A stretch of DNA of 64,000 nucleotides from Gammaproteobacteria bacterium (GCA_963662545.2 CAXXLL010000002.1:2112001-2176000); one strand, 5' to 3'. Numbered from the stretch's first letter, positions 15,640-56,427 are shown. The notes: generated from the sequence alone by a model not told the origin. Program-made: numbers and translations.

Positions 15640-15865
15640 CAGTCTGTCGGACTTAGGCAATCGTCGCGAGCAGAGTAGGAGAGCGAGGCCAAATGTTCAC
15701 GATTTTGAGGCGCATAGTGGTTCTATGTAACGAAAGATTCGTCTGGAACGAATCTTCGCGTCAGCCCCGAAGGGGTGAAGCTCAGGGACGCGCTGAACAA
15801 AAATCGTGGATATTTGGGCCGCTCTCCCATCTGCGTAGCAGATTGTTCCTAAGTCCGACAGGCTG
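15640..15865. mobile_element. 226-bp MITE family B, copy 1, carrying one ~70-bp insert
   Basis: TIRs CAGtCTGTCGGACTTAGG / CCTAAGTCCGACAGGCTG; CTAG duplicated on both sides. Confidence 0.88.
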
Positions 15866-15882
15866 CTAGGCCATGAATCTTA

Positions 15883-15948
15883 ATTCGCCCGCAAGCGGGC
15901 TTCTACGAGAGTAGTAACAGCACCGTAGGAGCCCGCTTACCGGCGAAT
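15883..15948. repeat. inverted pair of GTAG-type REP sequences
   Basis: attcgcccgcaagcgggcttctac (15883-15906) and gtaggagcccgcttaccggcgaat (15925-15948), between convergent genes. Confidence 0.75.
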
Positions 15949-15971
15949 AGAGGGCGGCATTCACCCGCCTG

Positions 15972-16604
15972 CTAACGTTCGCGCAATTCCATTACCGCGC
16001 CCTCGCGGTGAATGTCGAGCCGGTTGAGAAAAGACTGGCCGAGCAGGGGAACGCTGGGGAAATCGCCATCGATGACGGTTCCCCTGACGCGTTTGATGCG
16101 CAGTGAACGTATCTTGACCTCGTCGAGGATGACGCCGTAGCCGACGGCGAATCCCGATGCGGTTCGTACCGTATGTTTTTCGCCCTCTACGGCATAAGGT
16201 ATCCCGATCCGGCGGGCGGTATGCTTATTCATGGCCACCGAAGTCGCACCGGTATCGACTAAAAAGCGTACGGGGTTGCCGTTGATCTGGCCGTCGACGA
16301 AATAATGTCCACCATCACCGGGCACCAGACGTACGACTTTCGGTGCGGGCCCGGCGGGAATGGATCCGCTGATCTTGCCGTCGAGAGCCAATTCGAACAC
16401 GCGTCCTTCGATCTCAACTAGCGCCCGATTCGCATCGGCGTCGATGAGCCGCACACCTTCGGGTGAGGACTCGCCTTTCTTCAACACCCGTTGCATGCCA
16501 TCGATGCTGAGTAGGGCCTTACCCTTGAAAAGGCCGAGCGCAGTGACTTTTGGTTCACCGAGAGCGTCGGCAAAAAGCCCGATCAAGACGGCGACCACAA
16601 GCAC
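15972..16604 (-). CDS. clan AA (retropepsin-like) aspartic protease, TIGR02281-like
   Basis: GHYFVDGQING, FLVDTGAT, LLGQSFL motifs; start position uncertain. Confidence 0.85.
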   Translation of the reverse strand: MLVVAVLIGLFADALGEPKVTALGLFKGKALLSIDGMQRVLKKGESSPEGVRLIDADANRALVEIEGRVFELALDGKISGSIPAGPAPKVVRLVPGDGGHYFVDGQINGNPVRFLVDTGATSVAMNKHTARRIGIPYAVEGEKHTVRTASGFAVGYGVILDEVKIRSLRIKRVRGTVIDGDFPSVPLLGQSFLNRLDIHREGAVMELRER

Positions 16605-16746
16605 ACGAATTCCGCACCTCGTCTCCTCGTACGTCGGGCCTTTTTGGGGCAGCAAGGCGCAAAACGCCCGCGACACATTTCTCACCATCCTGCTAGACTC
16701 GCGCGCTTCATTCGCTCCGGCGATTCGATTTAGAGGATTCCCTGTC

Positions 16747-17349
16747 ATGAAAGTTGCCTGCATCGATTTCGAAGGCGTGCTCGTGCCGGAAATCTGGATA
16801 AATCTCGCCGATCGCACGGGCATCAAAGCACTCGAACTCACCACCCGTGACATTCCGGACTACGACGAATTGATGACGTACCGGCTAAACATCATGTCCG
16901 AGCACCGCCTTGGTTTCAACGAAATCGAGGCGGCGGCCGCCGCGCTCGACCCCCTGCCGGGCGCCGCCGAGTTTCTGAGCTGGCTGAGAATTCATTTCCA
17001 GGTCGCAATTATTTCCGACACTTTCCACGAACTCGCCAAACCGCTGACGGCCAAACTCGGCCACCCGGTGATCCTATGCCACCGCCTGGAAATCAAATCC
17101 GACGGCAAGATCACCGGTTACATCATGCGGCAGGACGACCCCAAGCGGCGGGCAGTCGCAGCCTTCCAATCGCTGAATTACAAAGTCGTCGCAACCGGCG
17201 ATTCCTACAACGACATCAGCATGCTCGAGCAAGCGGATACCAGCATGCTCTTCAAGCCGTCGCACAAGGTGGTTGCCGACTACCCGGACATCGCTGTCGC
17301 GGATAATTACACTGAACTGCAGGAGATGTTCTCAGACGCGATCGATTGA
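16747..17349 (+). CDS. thrH: phosphoserine phosphatase / homoserine phosphotransferase
   Basis: ACIDFEGVLVPEIW, TTRDIPDYDELM, GDSYNDISML. Confidence 0.93.
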   Translation: MKVACIDFEGVLVPEIWINLADRTGIKALELTTRDIPDYDELMTYRLNIMSEHRLGFNEIEAAAAALDPLPGAAEFLSWLRIHFQVAIISDTFHELAKPLTAKLGHPVILCHRLEIKSDGKITGYIMRQDDPKRRAVAAFQSLNYKVVATGDSYNDISMLEQADTSMLFKPSHKVVADYPDIAVADNYTELQEMFSDAID

Positions 17350-17385
17350 CCGCACGCACCGACGTGCGTCGGAGCGACAAAATTG

Positions 17386-17464
17386 AACCACAGAGAACAC
17401 AGAGATTAGTGAACAAAAGATATTGTATTTCTCTGTGTTCTCTGCAGTTCATTGCGAGGTTAAA
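17386..17464. repeat. AACCACAGAG-type 9-mer periodic palindromic repeat
   Basis: aaccacagagaacacagag ... ctctgtgttctctg; related copy at 23303-23392; between convergent thrH and gluQ. Confidence 0.7.
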
Positions 17465-17494
17465 AGGCTCGCCCGGTGAGATATCCGGGCCATG

Positions 17495-18379
17495 TCAATC
17501 TGCAGGCGGTGGATAGACCGAGGTGCTCGCCTCGCGGCTTACTTGGGAGAGATCCCAACGCGCCCGAGCCCAGGCCAGTAGTTCAAGCGGCGGACCGTGA
17601 ATGGCATCGGCCGGTGGATCGAATCCGAGAAATCTCACCGCGTGAAAGAGCGCCGGCCGCGCGTCTTCGGGCAGCACAGGCACGGCCCGGCTCTGCTTGC
17701 TCAATTTCCTACCCTGCCGGTCCACCACGACTGGAACGTGCGCGTAGCGTGGTTCGGGCAGTCCGAGTAGATGCTGAAGATGTATCTGTCGCAGCGTGGA
17801 ATCGATCAGGTCAGCGCCACGCACGACTTCGTTGACGCCCTGCCAGGCATCGTCTACGGCACAGGCCAGATGATAGGCAACGAAGCCGTCGGCACGGCGC
17901 ACGACGAAATCGCCGCAGTCGCTTTCGAGGTGCTGGACGATGCGCCCCTGAACCGCGTCGTGAAAGACGAGGGCGCGATCGTCGACGCGCACCCTCAGCG
18001 TGCGCCCGGCAGTGCCCGGCGGCAGTCCTTGCCGGCAGGTGCCGGGATACCGGCTGCCGTCGAGATCGCGTCGCGTGCACGCGCAAGGGAAAACGGCGCC
18101 GTCCCCCTCAAGCGTCTCGAGCGCGGCTTTGTAGGCGTCGCCGCGCGTACTTTGGTACACAACCTCACCGTCCCAATGCAGTTCGAGCGCTTCAAGTGTA
18201 CGCAGGATCGCGGCGGCTGCGCCGGGCTCTTCGCGCGGCGGATCGAGGTCATCGATCCGCACCAGCCAACGACCTGCATGCGCCCGTGCCTCGAGAAAGC
18301 TCGCCAGCGCCGCCACTACGGATCCGAAATGTAGCGGCCCGGTGGGTGACGGCGCGAAACGCCCGGTGATGACGGACAC
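17495..18379 (-). CDS. gluQ: glutamyl-Q tRNA(Asp) synthetase
   Basis: GRFAPSPTGPLHFGS, CACTR, YPGTCR, VVRGADL, KLSKQ; no anticodon-binding domain. Confidence 0.93.
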   Translation of the reverse strand: MSVITGRFAPSPTGPLHFGSVVAALASFLEARAHAGRWLVRIDDLDPPREEPGAAAAILRTLEALELHWDGEVVYQSTRGDAYKAALETLEGDGAVFPCACTRRDLDGSRYPGTCRQGLPPGTAGRTLRVRVDDRALVFHDAVQGRIVQHLESDCGDFVVRRADGFVAYHLACAVDDAWQGVNEVVRGADLIDSTLRQIHLQHLLGLPEPRYAHVPVVVDRQGRKLSKQSRAVPVLPEDARPALFHAVRFLGFDPPADAIHGPPLELLAWARARWDLSQVSREASTSVYPPPAD

Positions 18380-18401
18380 GGCGATGGAGTCCCTTCGAAT
18401 G

Positions 18402-19142
18402 TCAGGGTGAAACGTTGCCCGAGAAATGTTCGCAGTACATGCTCGTCGCACCCGCTACCCCGACTGGGATTGCGAGGAAGTTGACGATCGGAATGATGGT
18501 CAGAAACGTAATGGAGCCGCCGAAGCCGAGCGCCAGGCGCCGTTGCGCGCGCATTTCCTCGATCACCGTCGGAAACAGGCGTCCGTGATTTCCCAATGGA
18601 CAGTCAAGATATTCCATACTCAGCATCCATGCGCCGAATAAAAACCACAGCATTGGGGCGACCACGTTGACTCCGGGTATCAAGCTGATCACCACTAGCG
18701 GCAGGGCGCGCAACACGATATAGATCAGCTTGCGCAATTCCGCGCGGATGGAGCGTGCCGCCTCATTCAGCAAACGCGACCACGAGAATGCCGGTGTTTC
18801 CATCTGTGGATTGAGATGATGCTCAACGGCTTCCGCCAGCATACTGTTGAATGGACCGGCGATAAGATTTGCGAGCAGAGAGAATGTGAAAAAGACGCTG
18901 ATCGCCGCGAGGAGTCCCAAGATCAACCACAAGATCCAGCGGATCCATTCGGGCCAGTCGGCCAGGTAGCGGTCGAGTCCATAATCGACCGCCATCCCTA
19001 CGGCGCTCAGCGCCAGCACGAAAACCACGATATTGATCAAAAGCGGAATCGCGACGAAAATCCGCACGCCGGGTTGCGTGATGAGCCTGAATCCGCGCAA
19101 GGCATGGCGCATGCCCTGCATGAGCCCCGTGCCGGCGCTCAT
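18402..19142 (-). CDS. cysZ: sulfate transporter CysZ (EI24 domain)
   Basis: ANLIAGPFNSMLAEAVE, EYLDCPLGNH, IPIVNFLAIPVGVAGAT; near smc as in other gammaproteobacteria. Confidence 0.88.
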   Translation of the reverse strand: MSAGTGLMQGMRHALRGFRLITQPGVRIFVAIPLLINIVVFVLALSAVGMAVDYGLDRYLADWPEWIRWILWLILGLLAAISVFFTFSLLANLIAGPFNSMLAEAVEHHLNPQMETPAFSWSRLLNEAARSIRAELRKLIYIVLRALPLVVISLIPGVNVVAPMLWFLFGAWMLSMEYLDCPLGNHGRLFPTVIEEMRAQRRLALGFGGSITFLTIIPIVNFLAIPVGVAGATSMYCEHFSGNVSP

Positions 19143-19534
19143 GGAACCGGCAGCACGCTGTCAGCCGCCGGCGTCCAGCCGGTTTGCCGGTATTCCGTGA
19201 TGATCGTCGGGTAGGTCCCCCCGCGCACGTTGAACGCCGCGGTCATGCGCGCGTAGCGGGGCGCGCAGGCGGCCACTACGTCGTCGAGTATCGCGTTCGT
19301 CACCGCTTCGTGGAACGCGGCTTCGTCGCGGTACGACCAGATGTAAAGCTTGAGCGCCTTGAGTTCCAGACAAGTCTGGTCCGGAATGTACTCGATCTTC
19401 ATGTCGGCGAAATCCGGCTGCCCGGTGAGTGGGCACAAACAGGTGAACTCCGGCAGACGGATGCTGATCAGGAAGTCGCGCTCGGGCTTCGGGTTCGCGA
19501 ATGTGTCGAGTTCCCGTACGGGTTTCAGGGCCAT
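19139..19534 (-). CDS. queF: preQ0 reductase (type I QueF)
   Basis: PEFTCLCPLTGQPDFA, ELKALKLY, FHE, FNVRGG. Confidence 0.95.
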   Translation of the reverse strand: MALKPVRELDTFANPKPERDFLISIRLPEFTCLCPLTGQPDFADMKIEYIPDQTCLELKALKLYIWSYRDEAAFHEAVTNAILDDVVAACAPRYARMTAAFNVRGGTYPTIITEYRQTGWTPAADSVLPVP

Positions 19535-19728
19535 GGCCGCGTTCGATGAAGGCTGAAAATTGGCGCTAACCTTACCACACGGCGCGTTTGCCAACGGCCA
19601 CCACTCGAGACGCAGAACGGGTTCGAGCAAGCCTTCTTTTCTTCACCGAAAACAGTTCGTTAGTCGTCGTCAATTCGACGCCCGGCGGCGTTGTGCCGGC
19701 GGATCACGATGGGGTATGCTGTGCCTCC

Positions 19729-22700
19729 ATGCGCATCACACGAATTAAGCTCTCAGGCTTCAAATCGTTCGTCGATCCCACCACTCTAACCCTCCCCGGA
19801 AACCTCACTGGCGTCGTCGGCCCCAACGGCTGCGGCAAGTCCAATATTATCGATGCGCTCATCTGGGTCATGGGGGAAAGTTCCGCCAAGCATCTGCGGG
19901 GCGATTCGATGTCGGACGTTATTTTCAACGGATCCAACACTCGAAAGCCGGTCGGTCAGGCGACCGTTGAGATCATCTTCGACAATACCGACGGCACGAT
20001 CGGCGGACAGTACGCCGGATTCGGCGAAATTTCGATCAAACGCACCGTAGGGCGCGATGGCATTTCGTCCTATTTCCTGAACGGCGGACGCTGCCGCCGC
20101 AAGGACGTCACCAACATCTTTCTGGGAACCGGTATCGGCGCGCGCGGCTATTCGGTGATCGAACAAGGCATGATCTCGCGAGTGATCGAGGCGAAGCCGG
20201 AGGAGTTACGTTCGTTCCTGGAGGAAGCCGCCGGCATTTCCAAATATAAGGAGCGGCGCCGTGAGACCGAGACCCGCATGCGCCACACCCGTGAGAATAT
20301 CGAGCGCCTCGACGATATCCGTGAAGAATTGGACAAGCAGTTGGCACATCTGCAGCGTCAGGCACGAGGCGCCGAGCGCTATCAGAAACTGAAAGCGGAA
20401 GAAAGGCACGCCCAAGGGCGCCTGTTGGCCGTACGCTGGCGCGCGCTGGACGCCGAGCGTATCGAATGCAAGCAACGTGTCGAGGAGCGCGCTAACGAAG
20501 TTGAAGCCAAGGCCGCAGGACTTCGCGATATCGAGGCGCGCCAGACAGGCTACCGTGAAGCACAAACCGAAGCGACGGAAAAATTCAATCAGGTACAGAC
20601 GGAGTTCTACGCCAAAAGCGCCGACATCTCGCGACTGGAGCAGGCGCTTAAACACGCCGACGAACTAGAGCAATCCCTCAGGGGTGATCTCGAGGAAACG
20701 AATGCCTCGCAAGAAGACCTGTCCCGCCTGGTGAAAACCGACCGTGTACAACGAGACGCAATCGACGAAAAACTGCAGATGCTCGAGCCACGTTTCAACC
20801 AGCACAGAGATGCCGGGACCGAAGTCTACGAAGCCGTCCGAGCGGTCGAAGCACGCATGACGCAATGGCAAAACGACTGGGATTTATTCAACGCCGCGCA
20901 TACCGAGCTGGCACAGCGTGAACATGCGGCCCAGATCCGGCTGGAACACCTGTTGGAGGACGTCGCCGATGCACACACCCGCAGCTCCTTCCTGAACGAC
21001 GAAGCCTCGCGCAACGACACTTCTGATCTGTCGTCACAACGTGATCAACTCCGTTCGGAGTTGGGCCAGGCCGAGGAACTGCGCGCTCAGACCAAGGTCG
21101 AGCGCGATGCGCTGCGCGCCAAGTTGTCGCAGAACTGGAGCGCCGCGCAAACTCTGGGAGCTTCTTTACACAATCACCAAGCGCACCTGCAAGAGCAGCG
21201 CGGACGTCTCGCGTCGCTCAAGGCGTTGCAGGAAGCCGCCTACGGCGGTGACCAGGAACGGGTTCAAGCCTGGTTCGAAGAAAAAGGGATCTCCGATCTC
21301 GCGCGACTCGTAGAATTCGTCGACGTCGAGACCGGCTGGGAGCGGGCGCTCGAAGCCGCCCTGCGCATTCCCCTCGGCGCCGTCTGCGGTGAGAACCTCG
21401 TCGGGCGACTGTTGGACACCGACCGCGGTCGGCCGCACACCTCGGCGATCACGGTAGTGGAAACGAATTCGAATTTGAACGCGACATCCGGCGCCCCCCC
21501 GGAGTCGCTCGCCAGCAAAGTGACGGGCCCGATCGATCTCGAACCCCTGCTGCACGGAGTATTCGCGGCTGCCAGCGTGGACGAGGCGAAATCGATTCGT
21601 GAGCGAATGGCCGCGCACGAGTTGGTCGTGCTGCCCGACGGCACGATGTTCGGTCGCAACTGGATACAGCTACCGGCCGCGGGCGATGAATCAGAAGGAA
21701 TCCTGTCGCGCGATCGCTTGATCGCTCACCTCGAGGCGAAGATCGAAAAGAACGACGCCGAGACCGCCGAGCTCCGCGCCCAGATCGATCTTTCACAGGC
21801 CCGTCTCAAAGAACTCGAGCAGCAGGAGCACGAAGTAAGCGAACGGCTGGAAATCGAGGATCGTGAAATTACCGCGCAGCGTACTGAGTTCGGACGGCTG
21901 GAAGCAGAATACCAGCGCAGGCAGGCGCGCACCTCGGACGTCGCCCGTGAACTGGAGAGACTGTCGGCGGAATCGGACGAGAATCGGGAGGCGATCGAAG
22001 CGCTCGAGCAGGACCTTAGTCTGGCATCGGCCCAGCTCGCCGAACACGCCGAACGGCGGGAGCAACTCAGCGGCACGCGGGGGGAAATTCAGCAGGAACT
22101 CGACGCTTCCAGGGAGCGTTGGCGCGATGCGCGCGAGTCGACGCACAGCCTGGAACTGGAGCTGGAACATGCAAAATCCCAGCTCGCGACCTTGGCTAGC
22201 AATATCGAGCGCAATATCACGGCCAAGAATCAACTGGAGCAACGATGTACGGAGATCGAACAGGCCATTGCTGCAATGAAAGCGCCGCGCGCAGAAATGA
22301 AAGCACAACTCGAACAGGCCTTGAAAGCCCGGCTCGATGCTGAGCGCCGCTTGAACGAGGCTCGCGAGGCACTCGGTGGCCTCGATGACGATCTCCATAA
22401 ATCGGCTGCAGCACGGGCCGAAATCGAACAGGCCATTGCCGAGCGTCGACGGCGCCTGGAGCAGGTACGCCTCGATCAGCGCGCGCTCGAAGTGCGGTTA
22501 CAAGAATTGATGGGCCGGTTCGACACCACCGGCGAAAATTTTGACGCGATCGCGGCGACCTTGAGCGACGAGGATAGTGAACAGAGCGTTCAGAGCGAAC
22601 TCGAACGGGTCGCGAACCGCATCGCGCGGCTCGGTCCGATCAATCTCGCCGCGATCGATGAATACTCACAATTGTCGGAGCGTAAGGCCTATCTCGACAA

Positions 22701-23247
22701 ACAACACGAAGACCTGGCCACAGCACTCGATACGCTAACGGAAGCGATACGCAAAATCGACCGCGAAACACGCACGCGCTTCAAAGAAACCTATGACAAG
22801 GTCAATAACGGTCTGCAGGCAATGTTCCCGATCCTGTTCGGCGGCGGCCACGCTTATTTGGAGATGACCGGCGAGGATTTACTGGAAACCGGCGTAACCG
22901 TCATGGCGCGCCCGCCCGGCAAGCGTAACAGCAACATTCATCTGCTTTCAGGTGGCGAAAAGGCGCTGACTGCGCTGGCTTTCATATTCGCGATCTTCGA
23001 AATGAGCCCGGCGCCGTTCTGCCTGCTCGACGAAGTCGATGCGCCGCTGGACGACGCCAATGTCGTGCGCCTGTGTGAAATGCTGATATCGATGTCGAAA
23101 TCGGTTCAGTTTTTGTTCGTCACGCACAATAAGATCACGATGGAAATCGCTGCACAAATTATCGGCGTGACGATGCAGGAAGCCGGTGTTTCCCGGCTCG
23201 TTTCGGTCAACATGGAGGAGGCCGTGGAATTGGCGGCGACCGCGTGA
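19729..23247 (+). CDS. smc: chromosome segregation protein SMC
   Basis: GFKSF, GPNGCGKSN Walker A, coiled coils, LSGGEK, LDEVDAPLD. Confidence 0.97.
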   Translation: MRITRIKLSGFKSFVDPTTLTLPGNLTGVVGPNGCGKSNIIDALIWVMGESSAKHLRGDSMSDVIFNGSNTRKPVGQATVEIIFDNTDGTIGGQYAGFGEISIKRTVGRDGISSYFLNGGRCRRKDVTNIFLGTGIGARGYSVIEQGMISRVIEAKPEELRSFLEEAAGISKYKERRRETETRMRHTRENIERLDDIREELDKQLAHLQRQARGAERYQKLKAEERHAQGRLLAVRWRALDAERIECKQRVEERANEVEAKAAGLRDIEARQTGYREAQTEATEKFNQVQTEFYAKSADISRLEQALKHADELEQSLRGDLEETNASQEDLSRLVKTDRVQRDAIDEKLQMLEPRFNQHRDAGTEVYEAVRAVEARMTQWQNDWDLFNAAHTELAQREHAAQIRLEHLLEDVADAHTRSSFLNDEASRNDTSDLSSQRDQLRSELGQAEELRAQTKVERDALRAKLSQNWSAAQTLGASLHNHQAHLQEQRGRLASLKALQEAAYGGDQERVQAWFEEKGISDLARLVEFVDVETGWERALEAALRIPLGAVCGENLVGRLLDTDRGRPHTSAITVVETNSNLNATSGAPPESLASKVTGPIDLEPLLHGVFAAASVDEAKSIRERMAAHELVVLPDGTMFGRNWIQLPAAGDESEGILSRDRLIAHLEAKIEKNDAETAELRAQIDLSQARLKELEQQEHEVSERLEIEDREITAQRTEFGRLEAEYQRRQARTSDVARELERLSAESDENREAIEALEQDLSLASAQLAEHAERREQLSGTRGEIQQELDASRERWRDARESTHSLELELEHAKSQLATLASNIERNITAKNQLEQRCTEIEQAIAAMKAPRAEMKAQLEQALKARLDAERRLNEAREALGGLDDDLHKSAAARAEIEQAIAERRRRLEQVRLDQRALEVRLQELMGRFDTTGENFDAIAATLSDEDSEQSVQSELERVANRIARLGPINLAAIDEYSQLSERKAYLDKQHEDLATALDTLTEAIRKIDRETRTRFKETYDKVNNGLQAMFPILFGGGHAYLEMTGEDLLETGVTVMARPPGKRNSNIHLLSGGEKALTALAFIFAIFEMSPAPFCLLDEVDAPLDDANVVRLCEMLISMSKSVQFLFVTHNKITMEIAAQIIGVTMQEAGVSRLVSVNMEEAVELAATA

Positions 23248-23302
23248 CGCGGTCTTGATGTTAGGACGCTTTGTTGTTTGAATCGCTAATACGGTCGCAA
23301 TG

Positions 23303-23392: not shown

Positions 23393-23472
23393 TTATTTTA
23401 TTGTACCGCTCCGTTATACGGCTGCGTACCAGTGCACCGTCTAAGATCCTACCTATGAAGCGCCGTTAACGC

Positions 23473-33909: not shown

Positions 33910-33920
33910 CAACACACTAG

Positions 33921-34193
33921 CAGCCTGTCGGACTTAGGGAATCGTAGCGAGGCGGTTGGGAGAGCGGTCTGAGAGGTGTCATGGTTTGAGGCGAATAGTG
34001 GGGCTATTTAACGAAAAATTCGTCAGGAACGAATTTTCGCGTAGCCCCGTAGGGGTGAAGCGCAGGGACGCGCTGAACAAAACCATGGCGCCTCTCAGAC
34101 CGCTATCCCAACGCCGCACGACTGCATGGATGCAGGAGGTAGAGCAATGCAGGAGCAATTGCCGAGTAGATTTTTCCTAAGTCCGACAGGCTG
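33921..34193. mobile_element. 273-bp MITE family B, copy 2, carrying two inserts
   Basis: Perfect TIRs CAGCCTGTCGGACTTAGG / CCTAAGTCCGACAGGCTG; CTAG duplication. Confidence 0.9.
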
Positions 34194-34230
34194 CTAGGCC
34201 TTAGTAGGCTAGAATCTCGCTTTTTACGCG

Positions 34231-34245
34231 CCCCCCCCCCCCCCC
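34231..34245. repeat. C15 homopolymer upstream of lepA
   Basis: 15 consecutive C between a TAGAAT -10-like hexamer (34210-34215) and the lepA ATG. Confidence 0.85.
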
Positions 34246-34272
34246 GCGGCGCCCGTCCTGAAATTCACTCTT

Positions 34273-36908: not shown

Positions 36909-37310
36909 ATGAACCTGAAGAGCAATCAGCAAGGAATCAGCCTGAGCGGATTAATCATGGCGTGCGTAGTGCTTGGCATAGGCGCCCTCCTATTCATGAA
37001 ATTGTTTCCCATCTATAACGAAAAGATGAAGGTCGACCAAGCCATGGACAGGCTGGCGAACAATCCGGACGGTGCAAGAATGACCAAGCGCGCGATGGTC
37101 AAGGCGATCATGAGACAGTTTGACGTCAATGACGTCGAGAGCTTTGACACACCGACGCTGAAAAAGAGACTGCAAGTAGGCAGGAAAAAAGGTTCGAAAG
37201 GCAAGTTTATTACGCTTGCCTATGAAATTCGCGGTCCGCTATTTTCCAATCTCGATATCGTGATGAATTACAACAAGGTCATCGAATTCGGGCCCGTGAA
37301 AACGGATTAG
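36909..37310 (+). CDS. DUF4845-family pilin-like protein
   Basis: QQGISL prepilin-like N terminus; conserved position between lepB and rnc. Confidence 0.82.
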   Translation: MNLKSNQQGISLSGLIMACVVLGIGALLFMKLFPIYNEKMKVDQAMDRLANNPDGARMTKRAMVKAIMRQFDVNDVESFDTPTLKKRLQVGRKKGSKGKFITLAYEIRGPLFSNLDIVMNYNKVIEFGPVKTD

Positions 37311-37472
37311 GGAGCCTCTGAATAAGTCATGGTGCGTCTGAATTGTTCATGAAATTGTGCAGATCAAGGCACGAATTGCAGGCAATAGCGGGGACTATTG
37401 GCAAAGTTCGTAACACAGAGCTGCGCGATTTCATGGGCAAGGCAGATGTGCCATGACTTATTCAGAGGTTCC
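37311..37472. mobile_element. 162-bp MITE family A, copy 2
   Basis: Same TIRs; flanks TTAG / TTAA; inverted relative to copy 1. Confidence 0.9.
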
Positions 37473-37488
37473 TTAACGTCGAAGATTC

Positions 37489-46652: not shown

Positions 46653-46894
46653 TTGAACTCGTCGTGATTGACCGGGACGGTACGCTGGTGGATTCCGAAG
46701 GGCGCATCGTCCGACCGATGACCGCGCCGTTTGCGGAGCAGGCGAACGAAACCGGCGTCATTCCATCGCCCGCCATCATAGTTGGCGACACCGAATTCGA
46801 CCTTGAAATGGCTGCGGCCGCCTCGATCCTAGGGGCCGCGGTAACCTACGGCGCACACTCAAAATCGCGTTTGCTAGACTTAGGGAGCCTCTGA
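46649..46894 (+). pseudogene. HAD-family (Gph-like) phosphatase remnant with an internal deletion and a MITE-derived stop
   Basis: Motif I (D.DGTLVDS) joined almost directly to motif IV (VGDTEFDLEMA); only 81 aa; stop lies inside the MITE A TIR. Confidence 0.78.
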
Positions 46895-47045
46895 ATGAGT
46901 TATGGTGCGAATGAATTGTGTATGAAATCATGCAGATCAAGGCACGAATTGCAGGCCATAGCGGGGACTATTGGCAAGTTTCGTAACGTAAGGCTCCGCG
47001 ATTTCAGGCGCACGGTAGGTGTGCCATAACTTATTCAGAAGTTGC
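46884..47045. mobile_element. 162-bp MITE family A, copy 3
   Basis: Degenerate TIRs; flanks TTAG / TTAA. Confidence 0.88.
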
Positions 47046-47142
47046 TTAAACCCGGCGGTCGTCGTCGTTACACTGCGCGAACTGCCAGGCGAGATAAAAC
47101 GTCTCGGTCCCACAGCGAAGCATTAGCAGGGAGATCATCAGT

Positions 47143-48597: not shown

Positions 48598-49095
48598 ATG
48601 GCAACCGAACTTCCCGACGAGGTCGACTGTCGTCAACTCGCAGATGAGGTCGGTTCGATTTCCGGCTCCATAGCGCCTGCTCGACTGACAAATGTCAGCG
48701 GGGTGTTTCGCCTCGCCGGGAGTGCGCGGGTGAGGCTCGATTTCCGCCGTAATGATGACCAGCAGGTCGCCATCGACGGAGAGATCGAGGCGCCGGTCGA
48801 AGCACAGTGTCAGCGGTGTCTGGAATGGATGTCGCTTGAACTGTGTATTACGGTCTGTGCGCTCGCGATGCCGTCGGCGGACGATGACTTTGCTTACGAG
48901 CAAAACCTTGTCGCCGCGCCGGAAGGCCGGCTCAAATTGGCGGACTTGGTCGAAGGTGAGATATTGCTTGCGTGTCCGATGATACCCGCTCACGGCGAGC
49001 GTTCCTGCGGTTCGCCGGCAGATTCGGGGCCGCGTCCCGATGAGCGGTACAAACCGTTCGCCGGGCTGGCCGATTTGATCAAAAAACAAGGTTGA
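48598..49095 (+). CDS. yceD: YceD/DUF177 protein
   Basis: CQRCLE, LVEGEILLACPM, PFAGLA; precedes rpmF. Confidence 0.88.
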   Translation: MATELPDEVDCRQLADEVGSISGSIAPARLTNVSGVFRLAGSARVRLDFRRNDDQQVAIDGEIEAPVEAQCQRCLEWMSLELCITVCALAMPSADDDFAYEQNLVAAPEGRLKLADLVEGEILLACPMIPAHGERSCGSPADSGPRPDERYKPFAGLADLIKKQG

Positions 49096-49140
49096 CGCGA
49101 TCGTCAACCGTAGAGGGGTATTTACCCCGGGATTGGAAAA

Positions 49141-49317
49141 ATGGCAGTACAAAAGAATAAGGTCACGCCGGCGAGACGCGGCATGCGGCGCTCTCACGAT
49201 GCGCTCAGCAAAACGGCGCTATCGGAGGATCCGACCACCGGCGAAATACATCAACGTCATCATGTAAGCGCGGACGGTTACTACCGCGGCAAAAAAGTTC
49301 TTCCCGACGCAGAATAA
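49141..49317 (+). CDS. rpmF: 50S ribosomal protein L32 (58 aa; absent from the ORF track)
   Basis: [22 protein letters not shown]...[22 protein letters not shown]. Confidence 0.96.
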
Positions 49318-49368
49318 ATTCCCTCTTTCGACGCTCTCTGAACGGCGTCTCGCCGGACGACGACCCGC

Positions 49369-50391
49369 TTGACCATACGCATTGCATTAGACGCCATGGG
49401 TGGTGATTTTGGTCCGCCGGTGACGGTGCCCGCAGCCGCGAGTGCATTAAAGCGCCATCCGTCACTCGAACTGGTGATGGTCGGTAACGAAGAGCAGCTC
49501 ACAGCCCAACTGCGTGAAGCCGGTCTCGATGGTCATGCTCGAATAGAGGTCCATCACGCCCCGCAGACCGTCGAGATGCACGAGAAACCATCCAAGGCTT
49601 TGCGCAGCAAACGACAATCGTCGATGCGCCGCGCCATCGATCTGGTCAAACAAGAGCAGGCGGCCGCCTGCGTCAGCGCGGGTAACACGGGGGCGTTAAT
49701 GGCAATCGCCCGCTACGTATTGAAAACACTGCCCGGTATCGATCGTCCCGCGATTTGCGGAGCAATGCCGGGCATCAACCGTCCAACGCGTGTTCTTGAC
49801 CTCGGCGCGAACGTAGATTCGACCTCCGAGGAACTGTTTCGTTTCGCCGTCATGGGTGCCGTTCTCGCTGAGGCCGTTGACGACCGCGAAAATCCCTCTG
49901 TTGCTTTGCTAAACATCGGCGAAGAAGAGATCAAGGGCAACGACCGAGTCAAGCAAACGGCGATACTGCTCGAACAAAGTCCATTGAACTATTACGGGTT
50001 TGTCGAGGGCGACGATATGTTTGGCGGCAAGGTGGATGTCATCGTCTGTGACGGCTTCGTCGGTAACGTGGCCCTGAAAGCCAGCGAAGGGGTCGCCGTC
50101 ATGCTTAGCGACATCGCGCGGGAGGAATTCGGTAAAGGTCTGCTGTCCAGACTCGGCGCGGTCTTAGCAAGCCGTTCCTTGAACTCCCTGCGTCGCCGCG
50201 CCGACCCCAGGCGCTACAACGGTGCGAGCCTGGTCGGCCTGAAGGGCATCGTCGTCAAGAGTCACGGCGGCGCGGATGCATTGTCGTTATCACACGCCAT
50301 TGATGTCGCGCTGATCGAGATTGAGAAAGCCGTTCCCGATCGGATCAGCCGTCTGCTCGAAGAACTGTTAGCCAACGACGGGTCTCAATGA
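49369..50391 (+). CDS. plsX: phosphate acyltransferase PlsX
   Basis: IALDAMGGD, SAGNTGAL, LDLGAN, VKSHG. Confidence 0.96.
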   Translation: MTIRIALDAMGGDFGPPVTVPAAASALKRHPSLELVMVGNEEQLTAQLREAGLDGHARIEVHHAPQTVEMHEKPSKALRSKRQSSMRRAIDLVKQEQAAACVSAGNTGALMAIARYVLKTLPGIDRPAICGAMPGINRPTRVLDLGANVDSTSEELFRFAVMGAVLAEAVDDRENPSVALLNIGEEEIKGNDRVKQTAILLEQSPLNYYGFVEGDDMFGGKVDVIVCDGFVGNVALKASEGVAVMLSDIAREEFGKGLLSRLGAVLASRSLNSLRRRADPRRYNGASLVGLKGIVVKSHGGADALSLSHAIDVALIEIEKAVPDRISRLLEELLANDGSQ

Positions 50392-51374
50392 ACGGTACCG
50401 AGTCTGTCTTACCTTTTGCCGTCGTGTTCCCGGGCCAGGGATCACAGCGTGTCGGCATGATGTCGACACTGGCCGCCGCGCACGAAGAGGTTGTCGAACG
50501 ATTCGCAACGGCCTCCAGCGTACTGGGTTTCGACCTGTGGGAATTGGTCAGCAACGGCCCGGCAGATTCCTTGAACCGAACGGAAAATACGCAGCCGGCG
50601 ATGTTGGCGGCGGGCGTCGCCACCTGGGACGTATGGCTCAAATCCGGAGGGCCGATGCCGGCGCGGGTAGCGGGGCATAGTTTTGGAGAATATACCGCGC
50701 TGGTCTGCGCCGGCGCGCTTAAATTCGACACCGCAGTTGCGCTGGCTGCGGATCGCGCACGTTACATGCAGGAAGCGGTACCCGAACACGAAGGCGCGAT
50801 GGCGGCGATTCTGGGGCTAGGGCTGGGCGTTCTGGAGGCCATTTGTAAACAGGCAGCCGGCAACCAGGGGATCTGCGCATGCGCAAACCTCAATGCGCCC
50901 GGTCAGATTGTCATCGCTGGCGATACCCGCACTGTCGAGGCGGCTTGCGACCTCGCGCGCGAAGCGGGGGCCAAGCGCGCGATTCGCCTGCCCATGAGCG
51001 TGCCCGTCCATTGCAGCCTGATGCGCCCCGCTGCGGAACGTCTCGCCGAACGCTTACGCAGCGTCGATTTCACCTCGCCGCGGATCGAGGTGACCCACAA
51101 CGTTGACGTCGCCGCTCATTACGAACCGGACGAAATCAAAGATGCCCTGGTCCGGCAGCTCTATTCGCCGGTGCGCTGGATAGAAACCATCGAGGACTTT
51201 GCGCGCAGCGGCATTTCCCATGTGTTCGAATGCGGCCCAGGCAAGATTTTGACTTCGCTGATCAAGCGCATCGATCGTTCGCTCGACAGCGCCGCGCTGT
51301 CGGGTTCGGAGTCGTTCAGAGAACAAATTGAAACCATTAGCGGGCTGTCAAGAGGACGAGCTGATGAGCGATGA
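50388..51374 (+). CDS. fabD: malonyl-CoA:ACP transacylase
   Basis: FPGQGSQ, TQPA, GHSFGEY, SVPVHC. Confidence 0.96.
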   Translation: MNGTESVLPFAVVFPGQGSQRVGMMSTLAAAHEEVVERFATASSVLGFDLWELVSNGPADSLNRTENTQPAMLAAGVATWDVWLKSGGPMPARVAGHSFGEYTALVCAGALKFDTAVALAADRARYMQEAVPEHEGAMAAILGLGLGVLEAICKQAAGNQGICACANLNAPGQIVIAGDTRTVEAACDLAREAGAKRAIRLPMSVPVHCSLMRPAAERLAERLRSVDFTSPRIEVTHNVDVAAHYEPDEIKDALVRQLYSPVRWIETIEDFARSGISHVFECGPGKILTSLIKRIDRSLDSAALSGSESFREQIETISGLSRGRADER

Positions 51375-52104
51375 GAAGATTGCAATCGTCACCGGTGCCA
51401 GCCGCGGCATCGGCATGGCAATAGCCACGGCGCTCAAGGACACCGGGTTCAGCGTGCTTGGGACAGCGACCGGCGCGGCGGGCCTCGAACGGATCGAAGA
51501 AATGCTCGGTCGAGACAACGCACTGACAGCCGCCCTGCCTCTTGATCTTTGCCACGCTGAATCGCTGAAATCATTCTTGGCCGAACTCGATGAGCGCGAA
51601 CTGAAACCGGCTGTGGTGGTGAATAACGCCGGGATAACGCGCGACAACTTACTATTACGTATGAAGGACGACGAATGGAACGATGTCATCACGGCTAACC
51701 TCGGATCCGTGTTCAGACTCTGCAGGCATCTGCTCAAACCGATGCTAAAGGCTCGCTACGGCCGCATCATCAACATCACCTCGGTAGTCGGCGTCACGGG
51801 TAATCCGGGTCAAGCGAATTATGCGGCTGCCAAGGCCGGAATCATCGGATTCACCAAGTCGCTTGCACACGAAGTCGCGAAACGGGGTATCACCGTCAAC
51901 GCCGTGGCGCCTGGCTTCATCGATACGGATATGACGAGCACACTCACGGACGAACAAAAGTCTCTCGTGCTCGCTCAAATTCCCATAGGGAGAATAGGTC
52001 GACCGGAAGAAGTGGCTGCGGTCGTCGCCTTCCTCGCGTCGCAAGCGGCGTCTTACATCACCGGTGAAACAATTCATATCAACGGCGGAATGCATATGGT
52101 CTGA
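51364..52104 (+). CDS. fabG: 3-oxoacyl-ACP reductase
   Basis: TGASRGIG, NNAGITRD, YAAAK. Confidence 0.96.
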   Translation: MSDEKIAIVTGASRGIGMAIATALKDTGFSVLGTATGAAGLERIEEMLGRDNALTAALPLDLCHAESLKSFLAELDERELKPAVVVNNAGITRDNLLLRMKDDEWNDVITANLGSVFRLCRHLLKPMLKARYGRIINITSVVGVTGNPGQANYAAAKAGIIGFTKSLAHEVAKRGITVNAVAPGFIDTDMTSTLTDEQKSLVLAQIPIGRIGRPEEVAAVVAFLASQAASYITGETIHINGGMHMV

Positions 52105-52349
52105 TCAATGCTGCACACATCGTTCATCGGAAAGGGTACATGCCGCTTTCAAAGTAATTCAAACGTACCGGAGAGATGCTGCGTTTAGCGAAAATAAGGC
52201 AGAAAATAGTTGCGCAATCAGTGTAATTTGATGTTTTTAAAGTTGATTTTTCAGTGCGATCAGCACCTTGCTTGCAGTTTATTCGGTTTTCACTAAACTA
52301 GCACTCGCCGCTGCCCTGGCGGTACTCGAATTGGGAGGAATTTCTAACG

Positions 52350-52589
52350 ATGAGTAGCGTTGAAGAACGTGTCAAGAAGATCGTCGTCGAACAGTTGGGA
52401 GTTAAAGAAGAAGAGGTTACAAATGAAGCTTCATTTGTCGATGATCTGGGCGCTGATTCGCTCGACACGGTTGAACTCGTAATGGCACTGGAAGAGGAAT
52501 TCAAAACCGAAATTCCAGATGAAGACGCAGAAAAAATCACGACGGTGCAGCAAGCAATCGATTACATCAACGATCACTCGGACGCTTAA
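52350..52589 (+). CDS. acpP: acyl carrier protein
   Basis: [20 protein letters not shown]. Confidence 0.98.
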
Positions 52590-52820
52590 TAAGGTCTACT
52601 GTCAGCTTAGAATCTAGGCTGCGATTCGCCGATCGAACGCGGCCTTTTTCTGACGGTGATCTCCACAATCGCGAATACGGGCACGGCGAAAATGGATTCG
52701 ACAGATTCGTCGAATACCGGACCGCATGCCAAAATAGAGCCGGCACAGTCGAGTGCGCTGTGTGATTTGAGGCCGGCCTGCCGGCAGCCGCTGCGGGATT
52801 CCGCCTGGGTTTAGCTATAT

Positions 52821-52983
52821 GGAACCTCGGAATAAGTCATGGCACATCGGCCTTGCCCATGAAATCGTGCAGCCTTATGTTACGAACCTTGCCCATAGGC
52901 CCCGCTATGGCCTGCGATTCGTGCCTTGCTCTGCACCATTGGATGAACCATTCAGACGCACCATGACTTATTCAGAGGATTCC
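52821..52983. mobile_element. MITE family A, copy 4
   Basis: Same sequence and orientation as copy 1; target duplication eroded. Confidence 0.87.
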
Positions 52984-53006
52984 ATGAATCAATGAAGTAT
53001 TCAGGA

Positions 53007-54242
53007 ATGGCGCATCGAGTAGTGGTGACGGGCCTGGGACTGGTTGCTCCGAACGGCAATACGGTGGCCGCATCGTGGAAAAACACGGTTAACGGCGTCA
53101 GCGGCATCGCCCCGATCGTCGCGTTCGATGCGTCCAGATTCGTGACTCGGATCGCCGGCGAAATCAAGGATTTCGACATCACTCAGTTCATCTCGCGCAA
53201 GCAAGCACGCAGAATGGACCCGTTCATCCATTACGGACTCGCGGCGGCGATAGAGGCGATCAATGACGCCGGAATCGAAGTAACAGATGCCAATGCGAAG
53301 CGCATCGGTGCGATCATCGGCTCCGGAATCGGCGGACTACCGGGCATCGAGAAGGGCTACCAGTCTTTTCTCGACGGCGGACCGAAAAGGATTTCACCAT
53401 TCTTCGTACCCAGCAATATCATCAACATGGTCGCCGGTAATCTTTCGATCATGTATGGGTTCAAAGGGCCCAACTACGGCATAGTGTCCGCATGCTCGAC
53501 GGGAGCGCACTGCATCGGTCTCGCCGCGAGAGCGATCGAGCGCGGTGAACAAGACGTCATCGTTGCCGGCGGTTCGGAATTTTCTACCTGTCCGACTGGT
53601 ATAGGCGGGTTCGCATCCGCAAAAGCCCTGTCAAGGCGCAATGACGATCCGACCGCTGCAAGCAGACCTTGGGATGCGGAACGCGACGGGTTCGTATTAA
53701 GCGACGGCGCCGGGATCGTGATCCTCGAATCACTGGAACACGCGCAGGCGAGGAGCGCAAATATTTACGCGGAACTCATCGGCTTCGCGATGAACAGTGA
53801 TGCCTACCATATAACGGCGCCGTCTCCGAACGGCGAGGGCGCGGCCGATTGCATGGCCCTCGCCCTGGCGGATGCCAATCTGAACGCCGAGGACATCGAT
53901 TACATCAACGCCCATGGAACTTCCACGCCGGCGGGCGATAAAGCAGAAACGGATGCTGTAAAGATCGCGTTCGGCGAGCACGCGTACAAGTTGGCGATGA
54001 GTTCGACGAAATCGATGGTTGGCCACATGCTCGGCGCAGCGGGCGGGGCGGAAGCCGTGTACACCATTCTCGCCATACGTGATCAGGTAGCCCCACCCAC
54101 GATCAATCTTACGAATCTTGACCCGGAGTGTGACCTCGATTACGTGCCAAACGCCGCACGAGATATGAAAATCAAGGTCGCGCTATCGAATTCATTCGGT
54201 TTTGGCGGCACCAACGGTTCGCTGGTGTTCAGCCACATCTGA
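53007..54242 (+). CDS. fabF: 3-oxoacyl-ACP synthase II
   Basis: SACSTG, NAHGTST, KSMVGHMLGA, SNSFGFGG. Confidence 0.96.
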   Translation: MAHRVVVTGLGLVAPNGNTVAASWKNTVNGVSGIAPIVAFDASRFVTRIAGEIKDFDITQFISRKQARRMDPFIHYGLAAAIEAINDAGIEVTDANAKRIGAIIGSGIGGLPGIEKGYQSFLDGGPKRISPFFVPSNIINMVAGNLSIMYGFKGPNYGIVSACSTGAHCIGLAARAIERGEQDVIVAGGSEFSTCPTGIGGFASAKALSRRNDDPTAASRPWDAERDGFVLSDGAGIVILESLEHAQARSANIYAELIGFAMNSDAYHITAPSPNGEGAADCMALALADANLNAEDIDYINAHGTSTPAGDKAETDAVKIAFGEHAYKLAMSSTKSMVGHMLGAAGGAEAVYTILAIRDQVAPPTINLTNLDPECDLDYVPNAARDMKIKVALSNSFGFGGTNGSLVFSHI

Positions 54243-54282
54243 TATCGCCCAAGGCAGCAAAAACGGGCGCACGGAGCGTCTT

Positions 54283-55101
54283 GTGCCTCTCGTCGATGGC
54301 AAAGCCACACACGACGAATTAGCGGGCGATCGCGGACTCGCATTCGGCGATGGCGTTTTCGAAACGATCGCCTGGCACGATGGCCGCCTGCTAGCCTGGT
54401 CCAGTCACATGGATAGGTTGCGACGCGGTTGCAATATGTTCGGCATTCCGCCACCGAGCGATCGCGTCCTTCACGACGAATGCCTCGTTGTTGCACGAGA
54501 TCTGCCTCGAGCCGTGGTGAAGATCATCATTACGCGCGGCAGCGGAGGACGGGGATACCGGCCGCCGTCAAAACCTGCACCACGCCGGATCGTGGCCGCC
54601 CATCCGTGGCCCGTTCACATCGACTCCGCGGAAACCAAAACCTGGATATGCCAGCAGCCCGTCAGCATCAATCCATCGACGGCAGGCATCAAACACCTCA
54701 ATCGACTCGACCAGGTTCTTGCGAGCCGTGAGTAGCCGGGCGACAGCTACTTCGAAGGCTTGATGTTGGATCCTTCCGGTTTCCTAATCGAAGGTACCCG
54801 CAGTAACGTGTTTCTCGTACATGAGCGCACTGTCGTGACCCCGGATCTCAGGCAATGCGGCGTCAAGGGCATCGTACGCGACGCGGTGATGGCGTCCTGC
54901 CGCCGCGACGGCGTTGACCTGCTCGAGGCCCCGGTACGGATCGAAACATTGATTACGGCGGCCGAGGTCTTTATTTGCAATTCGATCATAGGCATCCGGC
55001 CGGTTACTTCGATCCATTGTCCAGAGGAGACCCGCTTGCAGCCCGGGCCCGTGGCAGAACGTCTTAGCGCATCGTTGCGCACCGAAGGCATAATCGTATG
55101 A
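54283..55101 (+). pseudogene. pabC: aminodeoxychorismate lyase with an in-frame TAG at 54733-54735
   Basis: DRGLAFGDGVFET, KIIITRG, GIKHLNRLDQVLASRE*PG..EGLML, IEGTRSNVF; halves are in frame. Confidence 0.85.
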
Positions 55102-56111
55102 ATTCCGTAGCACGCGTTATGTCAGTAATGGCAGTGACGGTCCTCGTGACGTTCGCGCTGGGCGGCGGGCTTGCATGGCATGAGATGGAACGCGTTATGC
55201 AGTCTACTGTCGTGATGAGCGGACCCGTGTTGTTCCGCATCGAGCCGGGTTCAAATCTGTCCCGTATCGCACAGGATCTAGAAGCGCACGGCTGGATTTC
55301 ACACCATCGATTGTTTGTACTGCGTGCCTGGCTCGACGGATTCGCAAATTCAATTCAGGCAGGCACGTATGAAATTTCTCCGGGCGACACGCCACAGAAA
55401 ATGCTCGAGGCGTTTCGCACCGGCGACACAAAAACCTTCGACGTAACATTTATCGAGGGAAGCCGGTTCGCCGACATGCGCCGGGTCCTTGCAGCGCAGC
55501 GCCACCTCTTGCATACCATCGAGGACAAATCTGATGAAGAGCTTATGCGCGAGCTTAGCGTGCCGGAGATATCTGCCGAAGGCATGTTTTTTCCGTCCAC
55601 TTATCAATACGAAGCCGGATCGCGGGATATTGATCTGCTGGCGCGCGCGCACGCTCAACTTCAGGAAATTCTCAATCGCGAATGGGACAAACGTGCCGAA
55701 GACCTGCCCTACGCATCGCCCTATGATGCGCTCATCATGGCCTCCATCATCGAAGAAGAAACGGGACGGGCGGAGGAGCGCCGAGAGATTGCGGGCGTCT
55801 TCGTGCGGCGGCTCAAACGGGGCATGAAGTTGCAAACCGATCCCACCGTTATCTACGGACTTGGCAAGGCATACGACGGCAATTTGCGTCGTGCCGATCT
55901 GGAAGGAGATACACCGTACAATACTTATACGCGGTTCGGACTGCCGCCGACGCCCATTGCGCTGCCCGGCGCTGACGCAATCGCCGCGGCGCTCGACCCG
56001 GCGCCAGGGAAGACGCTCTATTTTGTCGCCAAAGGCGACGGGACTCACCAGTTTTCAAAAACGCTTAATGAACACAACGCCGCGGTACGCCGTTATCAGC
56101 TGCGCCGGTAA
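55098..56111 (+). CDS. mltG: endolytic transglycosylase MltG
   Basis: EGMFFPSTY, ASIIEEET, LQTDPTVIYG, YNTY...GLPPTPI. Confidence 0.95.
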   Translation: MNSVARVMSVMAVTVLVTFALGGGLAWHEMERVMQSTVVMSGPVLFRIEPGSNLSRIAQDLEAHGWISHHRLFVLRAWLDGFANSIQAGTYEISPGDTPQKMLEAFRTGDTKTFDVTFIEGSRFADMRRVLAAQRHLLHTIEDKSDEELMRELSVPEISAEGMFFPSTYQYEAGSRDIDLLARAHAQLQEILNREWDKRAEDLPYASPYDALIMASIIEEETGRAEERREIAGVFVRRLKRGMKLQTDPTVIYGLGKAYDGNLRRADLEGDTPYNTYTRFGLPPTPIALPGADAIAAALDPAPGKTLYFVAKGDGTHQFSKTLNEHNAAVRRYQLRR

Positions 56112-56127
56112 CTGGGAAGCACATTAA

Positions 56128-56427
56128 TGTGCTGTCCCGTAATAAACTTCGATAAGTCGCGCAGGACTCGTGCTGCGATACAAGGCGCGAGGAGGCGACG
56201 TATCGGGACAAATTCGCCGGGAACACAATTCTGTCGGGAACAGAATTGGACGCGCGTAGCGCGCCCGCAGGGTGAGCGCCAGGGATGGCGCGAATCCAAT
56301 TTGGACCGCCGCAGGCGGGCCCGAAGGGCGGATGCCATGAATGGCATCCGCAATACGGCCAGAGCCGCTACGCCGTAGCGCGGCACGAGGACCAGCGAAT
56401 TATGAAGTCTTATTGCGGGACAGCACA
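56128..56427. mobile_element. 300-bp MITE family C with an insert inside an insert
   Basis: TIRs TGTGCTGTCCCGtAATAAACTTC / GAAGTCTTATTgCGGGACAGCACA; TTAA duplication. Confidence 0.85.

Follow-up and report, generated by a model that had tools for sequence, protein, structure and literature searches.

A 64,000-nt stretch of a gammaproteobacterial genome (hereafter the window; positions 2112001-2176000 of contig C2 of the source genome G000, 5.58 Mb, 58% G+C) contains short inserts nested within MITEs, the miniature transposable elements with inverted repeats. We found that these inserts comprise a four-hairpin module of 66-90 nt, hereafter the unit, in four copies of which three are intact and one is split, together with an unrelated 47-nt insert, and that two MITE families, B and C, serve as their hosts. 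Units are very probably mobile modules; as a whole, the reading that we prefer, at about even odds, is that of a gene-less mobile micro-element that targets the loops of DNA hairpins. The original prediction, made from the window alone, had seen in the inserts a hyperparasitic layer that spreads CsrA/RsmA-type binding sites into operon mRNAs. This interpretation is partly supported: the nested layer and the CsrA-like loops were found, and the strand rule and a designed link to host operons were not.

Four-hairpin units are nested in two MITE families of the window

MITE B copy 1 (15636-15870), identified by repeat search and bounded by the terminal inverted repeats CTAGCAG...CTGCTAG, carries unit 1 at its apex (15732-15801, C2:2127732-2127801, + strand). 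This unit belongs to a short subfamily without hairpin 2 and was matched with 72.4 bits by R1, the covariance model that we built for the unit family. Its hairpin 4, AGCTC-AGGGAC-GCGCT (15779-15794, + strand), has one T.C mismatch in the stem, and the minimum free energy fold of the unit is a series of small hairpins in which hairpin 1 forms, but the CCC-GNA-GGG and hairpin 4 regions deviate from the model structure. A contig of run X1 joins position 15733 to 15801, skipping 67 nt, which is the unit-less form of this site.

MITE B copy 2 (33917-34197), with 96% complementary ends, holds unit 2 at its apex (34013-34081, C2:2146013-2146081, + strand; 77.5 bits). An empty MITE B apex reads TTTAACGAAAACCATGG, versus TTTAACGAAAA[66 nt]CCATGG when filled. 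Hairpin 4 of unit 2, AGCGC-AGGGAC-GCGCT (34059-34074, + strand), was recovered both by the hairpin check and by folding. The same MITE copy also contains the 47-nt mini-insert (about 34117-34164, + strand), which represents a separate family with 16 copies aligned over at least 35 nt and which is skipped in a run X1 contig joining 34116 to 34165. Its two hairpins on the + strand are CTGC-ATGGAT-GCAG (34122-34135) and GCAATGC-AGGA-GCAATTGC (34144-34162).

In MITE C (56124-56431, repeat search; arms 56124-56160 and 56395-56431) two units lie one inside the other, both on the + strand. The inner, third unit (56224-56298, C2:2168224-2168298; 80.1 bits, fold z-score -3.9) has the hairpin 4 GCGCC-AGGGAT-GGCGC (56276-56291, + strand) and sits within hairpin 1 of the outer unit (56208-56353), which it splits into a 5' part with the start of hairpin 1 (56208-56223) and a 3' part (56299-56353; partial nhmmer match at 56298-56347). 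Uninterrupted relatives with equal flanks at C3:2354160 and C3:2237464 (contig C3 of the same genome) bear out the predicted outer copy as a fourth unit. Its hairpin 4, GGATGCC-ATGAAT-GGCATCC (56330-56349, + strand), has lost the GGA, decayed to GAA. The inner unit probably entered hairpin 1 of another unit with the junction one base off.

All the inserts and all six hairpins that had been predicted are therefore present, including the different insert of about 47 bp; the T.C mismatch lies in the hairpin listed at 15783, and the one at 56336 had already been described as decayed. The MITE-B and MITE-C inserts had been taken for the same insert. They are different subfamilies: blastn returned 19-20 copies of the former and 12 of the latter, and no cross-match between the two at E<=1e-3. 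Both share a common architecture and are described by one covariance model.

Unit stems covary while GGA loops are kept

Read 5' to 3', the unit consists of CAAA(A/T)T, hairpin 1 with the loop C-N-GGA, TTG(G/A)AC, an optional and variable hairpin 2, the hairpin CCC-GNA-GGG, (T/C)GA, hairpin 4 with the loop A-N-GGA-Y closed by a C-G pair, and an end of the type GA(A/G)T. We aligned 33 diverse copies from the source genome and others. Results showed that 95.8% of the 612 pair cells were paired, compared with 73.4% in shuffled alignments and at most 46.7% when partners were slid. Changes on both sides occurred in 15 of the 19 modelled pairs, and the double-changed cells numbered 133 versus 39.6 ± 5.5 in shuffles. 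The closing C-G of hairpin 4 was kept in 33/33 aligned copies, and folds of single sequences reproduced the model hairpins for units 2 and 3. The z-scores of all these folds ranged from -1.5 to -4.6.

The R1 model found 68 copies in the source genome (E<=0.1). With strict Watson-Crick stems, GGA stood in the hairpin 1 loop of 53 and in the hairpin 4 loop of 47 of these, and 45 had the full C-A-N-GGA-Y-G at hairpin 4. GGA was likewise kept in 57 (hairpin 1) and 60 (hairpin 4) of 74 distinct copies from other genomes, in which the stems turn over. The stems thus covary strongly and the loops are kept, and the description in the original prediction of hairpins whose loop is kept while the stems differ was accurate. 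Matches to R1 occurred in 25 of 40 other genomes, including 17 of the 24 from the same family.

Units insert precisely after GA in other mobile elements and in tRNA-type loops

Comparison of filled with empty sites showed that insertion is precise, directly after GA and mostly before A, and that it involves neither terminal inverted repeats nor a clear target duplication; a 4-nt A run (AAAA microhomology) is the sole place where the boundary of the unit stays ambiguous. Ten of the 33 MITE B copies carry the unit at the palindrome apex, singly or stacked in tandem arrays of two or three, and 23 carry none; the 47-nt insert is present in 5/33. A genome of the same genus (G152), whose flanks are about 91% identical to those of the window, lacks the whole MITE B at the orthologous site upstream of lepA. 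At its mltG-tmk site MITE C is present with the bare apex CGTATCGGGA|ATACG, versus the two nested units of the source genome. By sequence comparison, this shows the lepA and mltG-tmk copies to have arisen after the split from the same-genus species.

Units also occupy fixed points of IS91-like transposase genes. An IS91-like pseudogene (C3:2046600-2048450), set against its clean paralogue (C3:2498999-2500501), contains eight inserts that measure 47-72 nt: two are units of 72 nt, four belong to a 51/52-nt family whose members have two AGGGAT loops, one is a copy of the 47-nt insert and one is another 47-nt element. The filled and empty copies of MITE B, MITE C in G152 and this gene pair together bear out the claim of a mini-element layer nested in other mobile elements. 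A reading of the units as miniatures of the IS91-like element was set aside, the flanks of its clean copy being unique. A reading of the 72-nt units as in-frame peptides was rejected: by eye, one copy is open and the other has an in-frame stop, and the 47/52-nt inserts shift the frame.

Two further observations concern these genes. The inserts around the pseudogene (C3:2046339-2048600) belong to at least four families, lie in both orientations and mostly have an A-N-GGA-T hairpin loop. In other genera (G154 and G151) the 72-nt unit occurs at an identical point of IS91-like genes, after ...AACACGCC(A/G)TGA, which reflects either an old insertion travelling with the IS lineage or repeated hits.

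The third class of host is tRNA-type sequence, where the unit sits in the T loop as GGTTCGA|unit|ATCC, in the D loop as GCTGA|unit|AGGC and in the anticodon loop as CTCGA|unit|AT; copies of this kind in the source genome are at C3:142461, C3:5722, C3:21146, C2:313512 and C2:2548716. An intact tRNA or tmRNA gene was present in 9 of 10 foreign loci of about 3 kb found with the Rfam model RF02902, and stood beside the unit in those that were read. When the unit was removed in silico, a tRNA spanning the junction was restored just once in 74 cases, which indicates that the hosts are duplicated tRNA fragments and not split genes; an intron-like reading of these contexts was ruled out by the same result. 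In most instances the insertion point falls within the loop of a further DNA hairpin, and across all hosts the common denominator of the targets is likely to be GA|A in a hairpin loop.

One tRNA-type locus is built in tandem. At C3:2338100-2338620 (- strand), each of three 176-nt repeats takes in the 5' two-thirds of a sequence resembling tRNA-Ser, whose anticodon loop holds a unit of a loop variant that has no GGA loops.

Unit orientation follows no host-operon rule

The original prediction had placed all inserts on the sense strand of the flanking operons and had named random orientation as the observation that would speak against it. In the window, the units do lie on the + strand. MITE B copy 2 is surrounded by genes for RseB, a DegP-type protease, a glutaredoxin-like protein and LepA, and MITE C by YceG/MltG and thymidylate kinase (all Pfam). 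At MITE B copy 1, the upstream neighbour is a PduO-type adenosyltransferase gene (Pfam), and the - strand open reading frame (ORF) at 15972-16853, with an aspartyl-protease domain (Pfam), is a real gene; the pduO locus is thus located between convergent genes.

Genome-wide, no strand bias was borne out. Among loci outside IS91-like genes, 10 were sense and 11 antisense between co-directional genes, with the pduO locus, in truth convergent, counted among the sense ones; the remaining loci were divergent (7), convergent (4) or antisense within an ORF (1). In IS91-like genes, 20 of 26 units were antisense and 6 sense. Filled MITE B copies (3 sense, 2 antisense) resembled empty ones (7 and 8) in lying either way. 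The 47-nt insert was sense in 6/6 co-directional and 6/8 IS91 contexts, which are small numbers of related copies. Orientation in either direction indicates that the inserts are not placed to regulate host operons, and their absence from the orthologous same-genus sites speaks against a conserved regulatory role there. A designed spreading of binding sites into operon mRNAs is thus not supported.

A proposed hairpin-loop-targeting micro-element and the evidence against it

In the mechanism that we consider, a trans-acting enzyme working on folded single-stranded DNA would move the units, and its target site would be GA|A in the loop of another DNA hairpin, namely the apex of MITE B or C or the T, D or anticodon loop of a tRNA fragment. 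The kept GGA loops would most likely be the element's own signal, since the NGA|A/T word that they contain is also that of the targets. The resemblance of these loops to CsrA sites would have no designed relation to host operons, and any sense-transcribed copy would still present a near-consensus site as a by-product. That the loops serve mobility rather than CsrA is a tentative view, to which we give somewhat less than an even chance.

Several results weigh against this micro-element reading. No mobilising enzyme was identified by a check of Y1 transposase flanks or by co-occurrence of Y1 and Y2 transposases, so we commit ourselves only to a trans-acting enzyme on folded single-stranded DNA. 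The seven Y1 transposase genes of the source genome have 0-1 ANGGAN hairpin within 1.5 kb each and are not flanked by them. Y1 co-occurrence is modest (19/25 genomes with units versus 6/15 without); IS91-type Y2 transposases occurred in 15/25 versus 0/15, an association that is partly trivial because units are embedded in IS91 genes. There is no replication-strand bias, the unit strand being the leading one in 25 of 55 loci (p=0.59, with a weak GC skew), and a lagging-strand mechanism of the IS200/IS605 type is therefore not favoured. The gene calls behind the orientation counts are crude and misclassed one window locus (pduO). The 143 strict CANGGAYG hairpins of the genome, grouped into 96 clusters, show a sense excess between co-directional genes (19 sense, 9 antisense, 1 mixed; 9 versus 9 inside ORFs), which is non-significant. 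Finally, a sister subfamily with GAAA-type or other non-GGA loops is located at the same GGTTC|GA flanks. This shows that GGA loops are dispensable for targeting, weakens the view that they serve mobility and leaves room for a role at the RNA level.

A Csr/Rsm role and other explanations

The foremost alternative is that Csr/Rsm binding is the selected function of the loops, the unit being a two-site module for one CsrA dimer that, once transcribed singly or in arrays, would serve as a regulator or decoy. The CsrA consensus obtained by SELEX, in which ligands are evolved systematically through exponential enrichment, is RUACARGGAUGU, and an ANGGAN hexaloop was seen in RsmE complexes, according to the accessible text of PMC7652899. 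The CANGGAYG octamer of hairpin 4 in 45/68 units equals the core of that consensus, leaving the flanking RUA and GU unmatched, so the CsrA/RsmA consensus loops of the original prediction are real for the last hairpin. The csrA gene whose presence it had asked for was found on contig C3 (PF02599, 94 bits, 2532806-2532964, - strand), and models of the sponge RNAs CsrB, RsmZ and RsmY (RF00018, RF00166 and RF00195), like that of TwoAYGGAY, gave no match over threshold in the source genome. Retention of GGA in both loops of the foreign copies despite stem turnover also favours a function in binding, as do the occurrence of two GGA-type loops in each of three unrelated mini-insert families, the dispensability of the loops for targeting, a faint CsrC-like match of a three-unit array (16.7 bits against a cut-off of 61) and the listing of the related RF02902 as a named small RNA (sRNA) in the Rfam table. 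For multi-copy RNAs of a mobile-like kind, too, AYGGAY loops are reported as proposed Csr/Rsm sites, in the accessible part of a preprint (10.64898/2026.09.22.753630).

Against a selected Csr/Rsm function stand the random orientation to host genes, the lack of conservation at orthologous loci within the genus, the many copies in dead transposase genes, mostly antisense, and the unit stems themselves, whose 5-7 G+C-rich pairs exceed the stem length that SELEX favoured, as far as the accessible text of PMC7652899 describes it. On balance we regard this function as unlikely, at roughly one chance in four. Binding of CsrA by sense-transcribed copies is, as such, plausible. Short contigs of the metatranscriptome run X20 cover MITE-B-like sequence, carry no information on strand or level, and may stem from DNA carry-over.

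Broader searches for Csr/Rsm signals yielded little. A global excess of ANGGAN hexaloop hairpins was rejected, the 295 found lying inside the range of control loops (115-352); among their octamers, only CAGGGATG (62) and CATGGATG (33) stood out. A scan for GGA-loop density was noisy and ranked coding windows at the top. A GacA-box scan for a classical Rsm sRNA was also discarded, since its best intergenic match (C3:1450543) reads as coding by eye (no family search).

Two loci were observed in this context. A decayed unit with the loops CTCGA and ATGGGT (C3:2532593-2532677) follows csrA at a distance of about 90 nt downstream, shares its strand and precedes a tRNA-Ser gene, which is probably a coincidence. 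At C3:857700-858260 (- strand), four tandem repeats of about 159 nt are flanked on both sides by - strand genes and immediately follow an ORF whose product ends in ...HIHVLGG.... Every copy has the hairpins CCGACC-AGGGAT-GGTCGG and CCGCC-ATGGAT-GGCAG plus more GGA words, giving 20 GGA in 561 nt compared with a mean of 4.3 per 300 nt. Judged by these motifs, the repeats are a candidate for a Csr-type sponge or for another member of the varied repeats of this genome.

A wider version of the binding idea would treat the units together with the 51-nt and 47-nt families as mobile Csr/Rsm decoys, each with two GGA loops at a spacing that a CsrA dimer could bridge, and transcribed copies and arrays as a sponge pool. 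The context would be a genome with csrA and without recognisable CsrB, RsmY or RsmZ, and the candidate arrays would be a run of three units (C2:1819548-1819749) and the fourfold array of GGA-rich 159-nt repeats. If this were true, a selfish element family would set the level of free CsrA, and TwoAYGGAY would be its Pseudomonas counterpart. We consider it doubtful, and less probable than the simpler binding function.

On mechanism, the main rival invokes a tyrosine recombinase with crossover in tRNA-type stem-loops; the moving entity would be a miniature integrative element, and the unit an arm of its attachment site. Where a tRNA or tmRNA gene stands intact nearby, the unit is embedded in a duplicated 3' (or 5') tRNA fragment together with the downstream flank of the tRNA, often as tandem modules of about 175-190 nt, a pattern left by integrases at T-loop and anticodon-loop sites; the near-complete failure of unit removal to restore a full tRNA, with fragments as hosts, agrees with this. 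However, the 66-72-nt unit alone is cleanly inserted in MITE apexes and IS91-like genes with no duplicated flank, and no integrase was linked to the loci, integrases not having been searched for. We rate the recombinase as improbable, on a par with the decoy pool. Least probable is that the units are not transposons and owe their spread to template switching, gene conversion or slippage of replication at hairpins. The insertions at apexes, the arrays of two or three units and the boundaries blurred by AAAA microhomology might speak for this, but it is hard to square with the range of unrelated hosts (MITEs of two families, genes of the IS91-like type and fragments of tRNA), with the occurrence in at least 25 other genomes, and with the constancy of the ends and of the GA|A site. 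The hairpin-loop-targeting micro-element remains the reading that we prefer.

Other features of the window

Rfam at gathering thresholds gave no match in the whole window, and no named record exceeds 75% identity to the LepA encoded there. Repeat search revealed a third MITE family, which is abundant, palindromic and 165-185 nt long, with seven full or partial copies in both orientations (12421-12600, 37304-37476, 46877-47066, 52817-52983, 58486-58667, 62211-62245 and 63132-63303). Between MITE B copy 2 and the start of lepA there is a run of about 17 C (34233-34249), which has no equivalent at the orthologous place in G152 and may represent either a tract prone to slippage or an artefact of the assembly. 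At 1068-1791 and 3211-3304 there are local repeats, direct as well as inverted, around CGTGTTACAGCGCGCTT, with copies about 584-614 nt apart, and also an exact 41-nt repeat with a spacing of 53 nt.

Significance of the unit family

The unit family is widespread and apparently unnamed: most of the related genomes searched contain this structured element of about 70 nt, yet Rfam shows only a sub-threshold look-alike, one Aggregatibacter sRNA. It adds a mobile element that would target the loops in folded DNA, among them those of tRNA genes and of other transposons, and a clean case of parasites nested within parasites. It also adds a second family, independent of TwoAYGGAY, of mobile-like multi-copy DNA with consensus CsrA hairpins. 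Recurrence across two families opens to direct test the question of whether the Csr/Rsm network is fed by selfish repeats. In annotation, units explain puzzling 'frameshifts' in IS91-like genes and partial tRNA repeats.

Comparison with known systems

The closest Rfam entry is RF02902 (AaHKsRNA22, Aggregatibacter sRNA 22), which a permissive scan matched with 33.2, 31 and 27.3 bits, under the gathering score of 39.8. Helix and linker order are equal (ACAAAA, hairpin, TTTTGAAC, hairpin, GCCCC-NNA-GGGGC, GA, hairpin, GAG; cmscan, model positions 1-101), whereas the unit scores are sub-threshold and the loops are not aligned to the model. Such sub-threshold matches occurred in 8 of 150 other class-level genomes, and none exceeded the cut-off in the 151 genomes of the class sample. 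The name AaHKsRNA22 does not occur in the main text of its source paper. Full-text literature, covered without supplements (among them that of PMC5909427, which may define AaHKsRNA22), contained no description of the unit, of T-loop-inserted repeats or of an insert in ERIC repeats; for the ERIC insert this includes PMC3184786.

Among mobile repeats, REPINs are inverted doublets of REP sequences that form one long hairpin and are moved by RAYT (TnpA-REP). Units resemble REP and REPIN sequences in being short, gene-less, hairpin-forming, multi-copy and mostly intergenic. They differ in having four separate hairpins in series instead of one long hairpin, in flanking no Y1 gene and in entering other elements and tRNA-type loops. 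Miniature elements derived from IS200/IS605 (palindrome-associated transposable elements) have hairpins near both ends, no inverted terminal repeats and no target duplication, and insert after a short fixed word. Units likewise have hairpins near both ends, lack inverted ends and target duplication and are inserted after the fixed word GA; in contrast, they show no lagging-strand bias (25/55), their target word is only GA, and a cognate transposase with matching ends was not found in the source genome. Unlike a classical MITE, the unit has neither terminal inverted repeats nor a clear target-site duplication. The small dispersed repeats (SDR) of heterocystous cyanobacteria, reportedly described by Elhai et al. 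in 2008, are said to be very small repeats nested inside MITEs and insertion sequences; they belong to another phylum and have another sequence, and units are larger, with four covarying hairpins.

With sponge RNAs of the CsrB/RsmZ type, units share repeated GGA hairpin loops and tandem arrays, but unit copies are dispersed in both orientations inside other mobile DNA and match none of RF00018, RF00166 and RF00195. The nearest parallel in kind is TwoAYGGAY (RF01731), which the accessible part of the 2026 preprint (10.64898/2026.09.22.753630) describes as multi-copy, multi-hairpin RNAs of Pseudomonadota with mobile-element-like variation in copy number, whose A-Y-GGA-Y loops are proposed as Csr/Rsm sites or sponges. 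The RF01731 model gave no match in the source genome at E<=1, and likewise none in control genomes, which leaves its sensitivity in doubt. Units differ from TwoAYGGAY, which has two hairpins on a shared basal stem, in having four hairpins one after another, a hairpin 1 loop of C-N-GGA, and insertions that are precise, enter hairpin loops and are nested in other mobile elements. The two are alike, as far as the accessible text of the preprint goes, in being multi-copy, multi-hairpin elements with GGA terminal loops, and on that footing the idea behind the original prediction is respectable and not new in kind.

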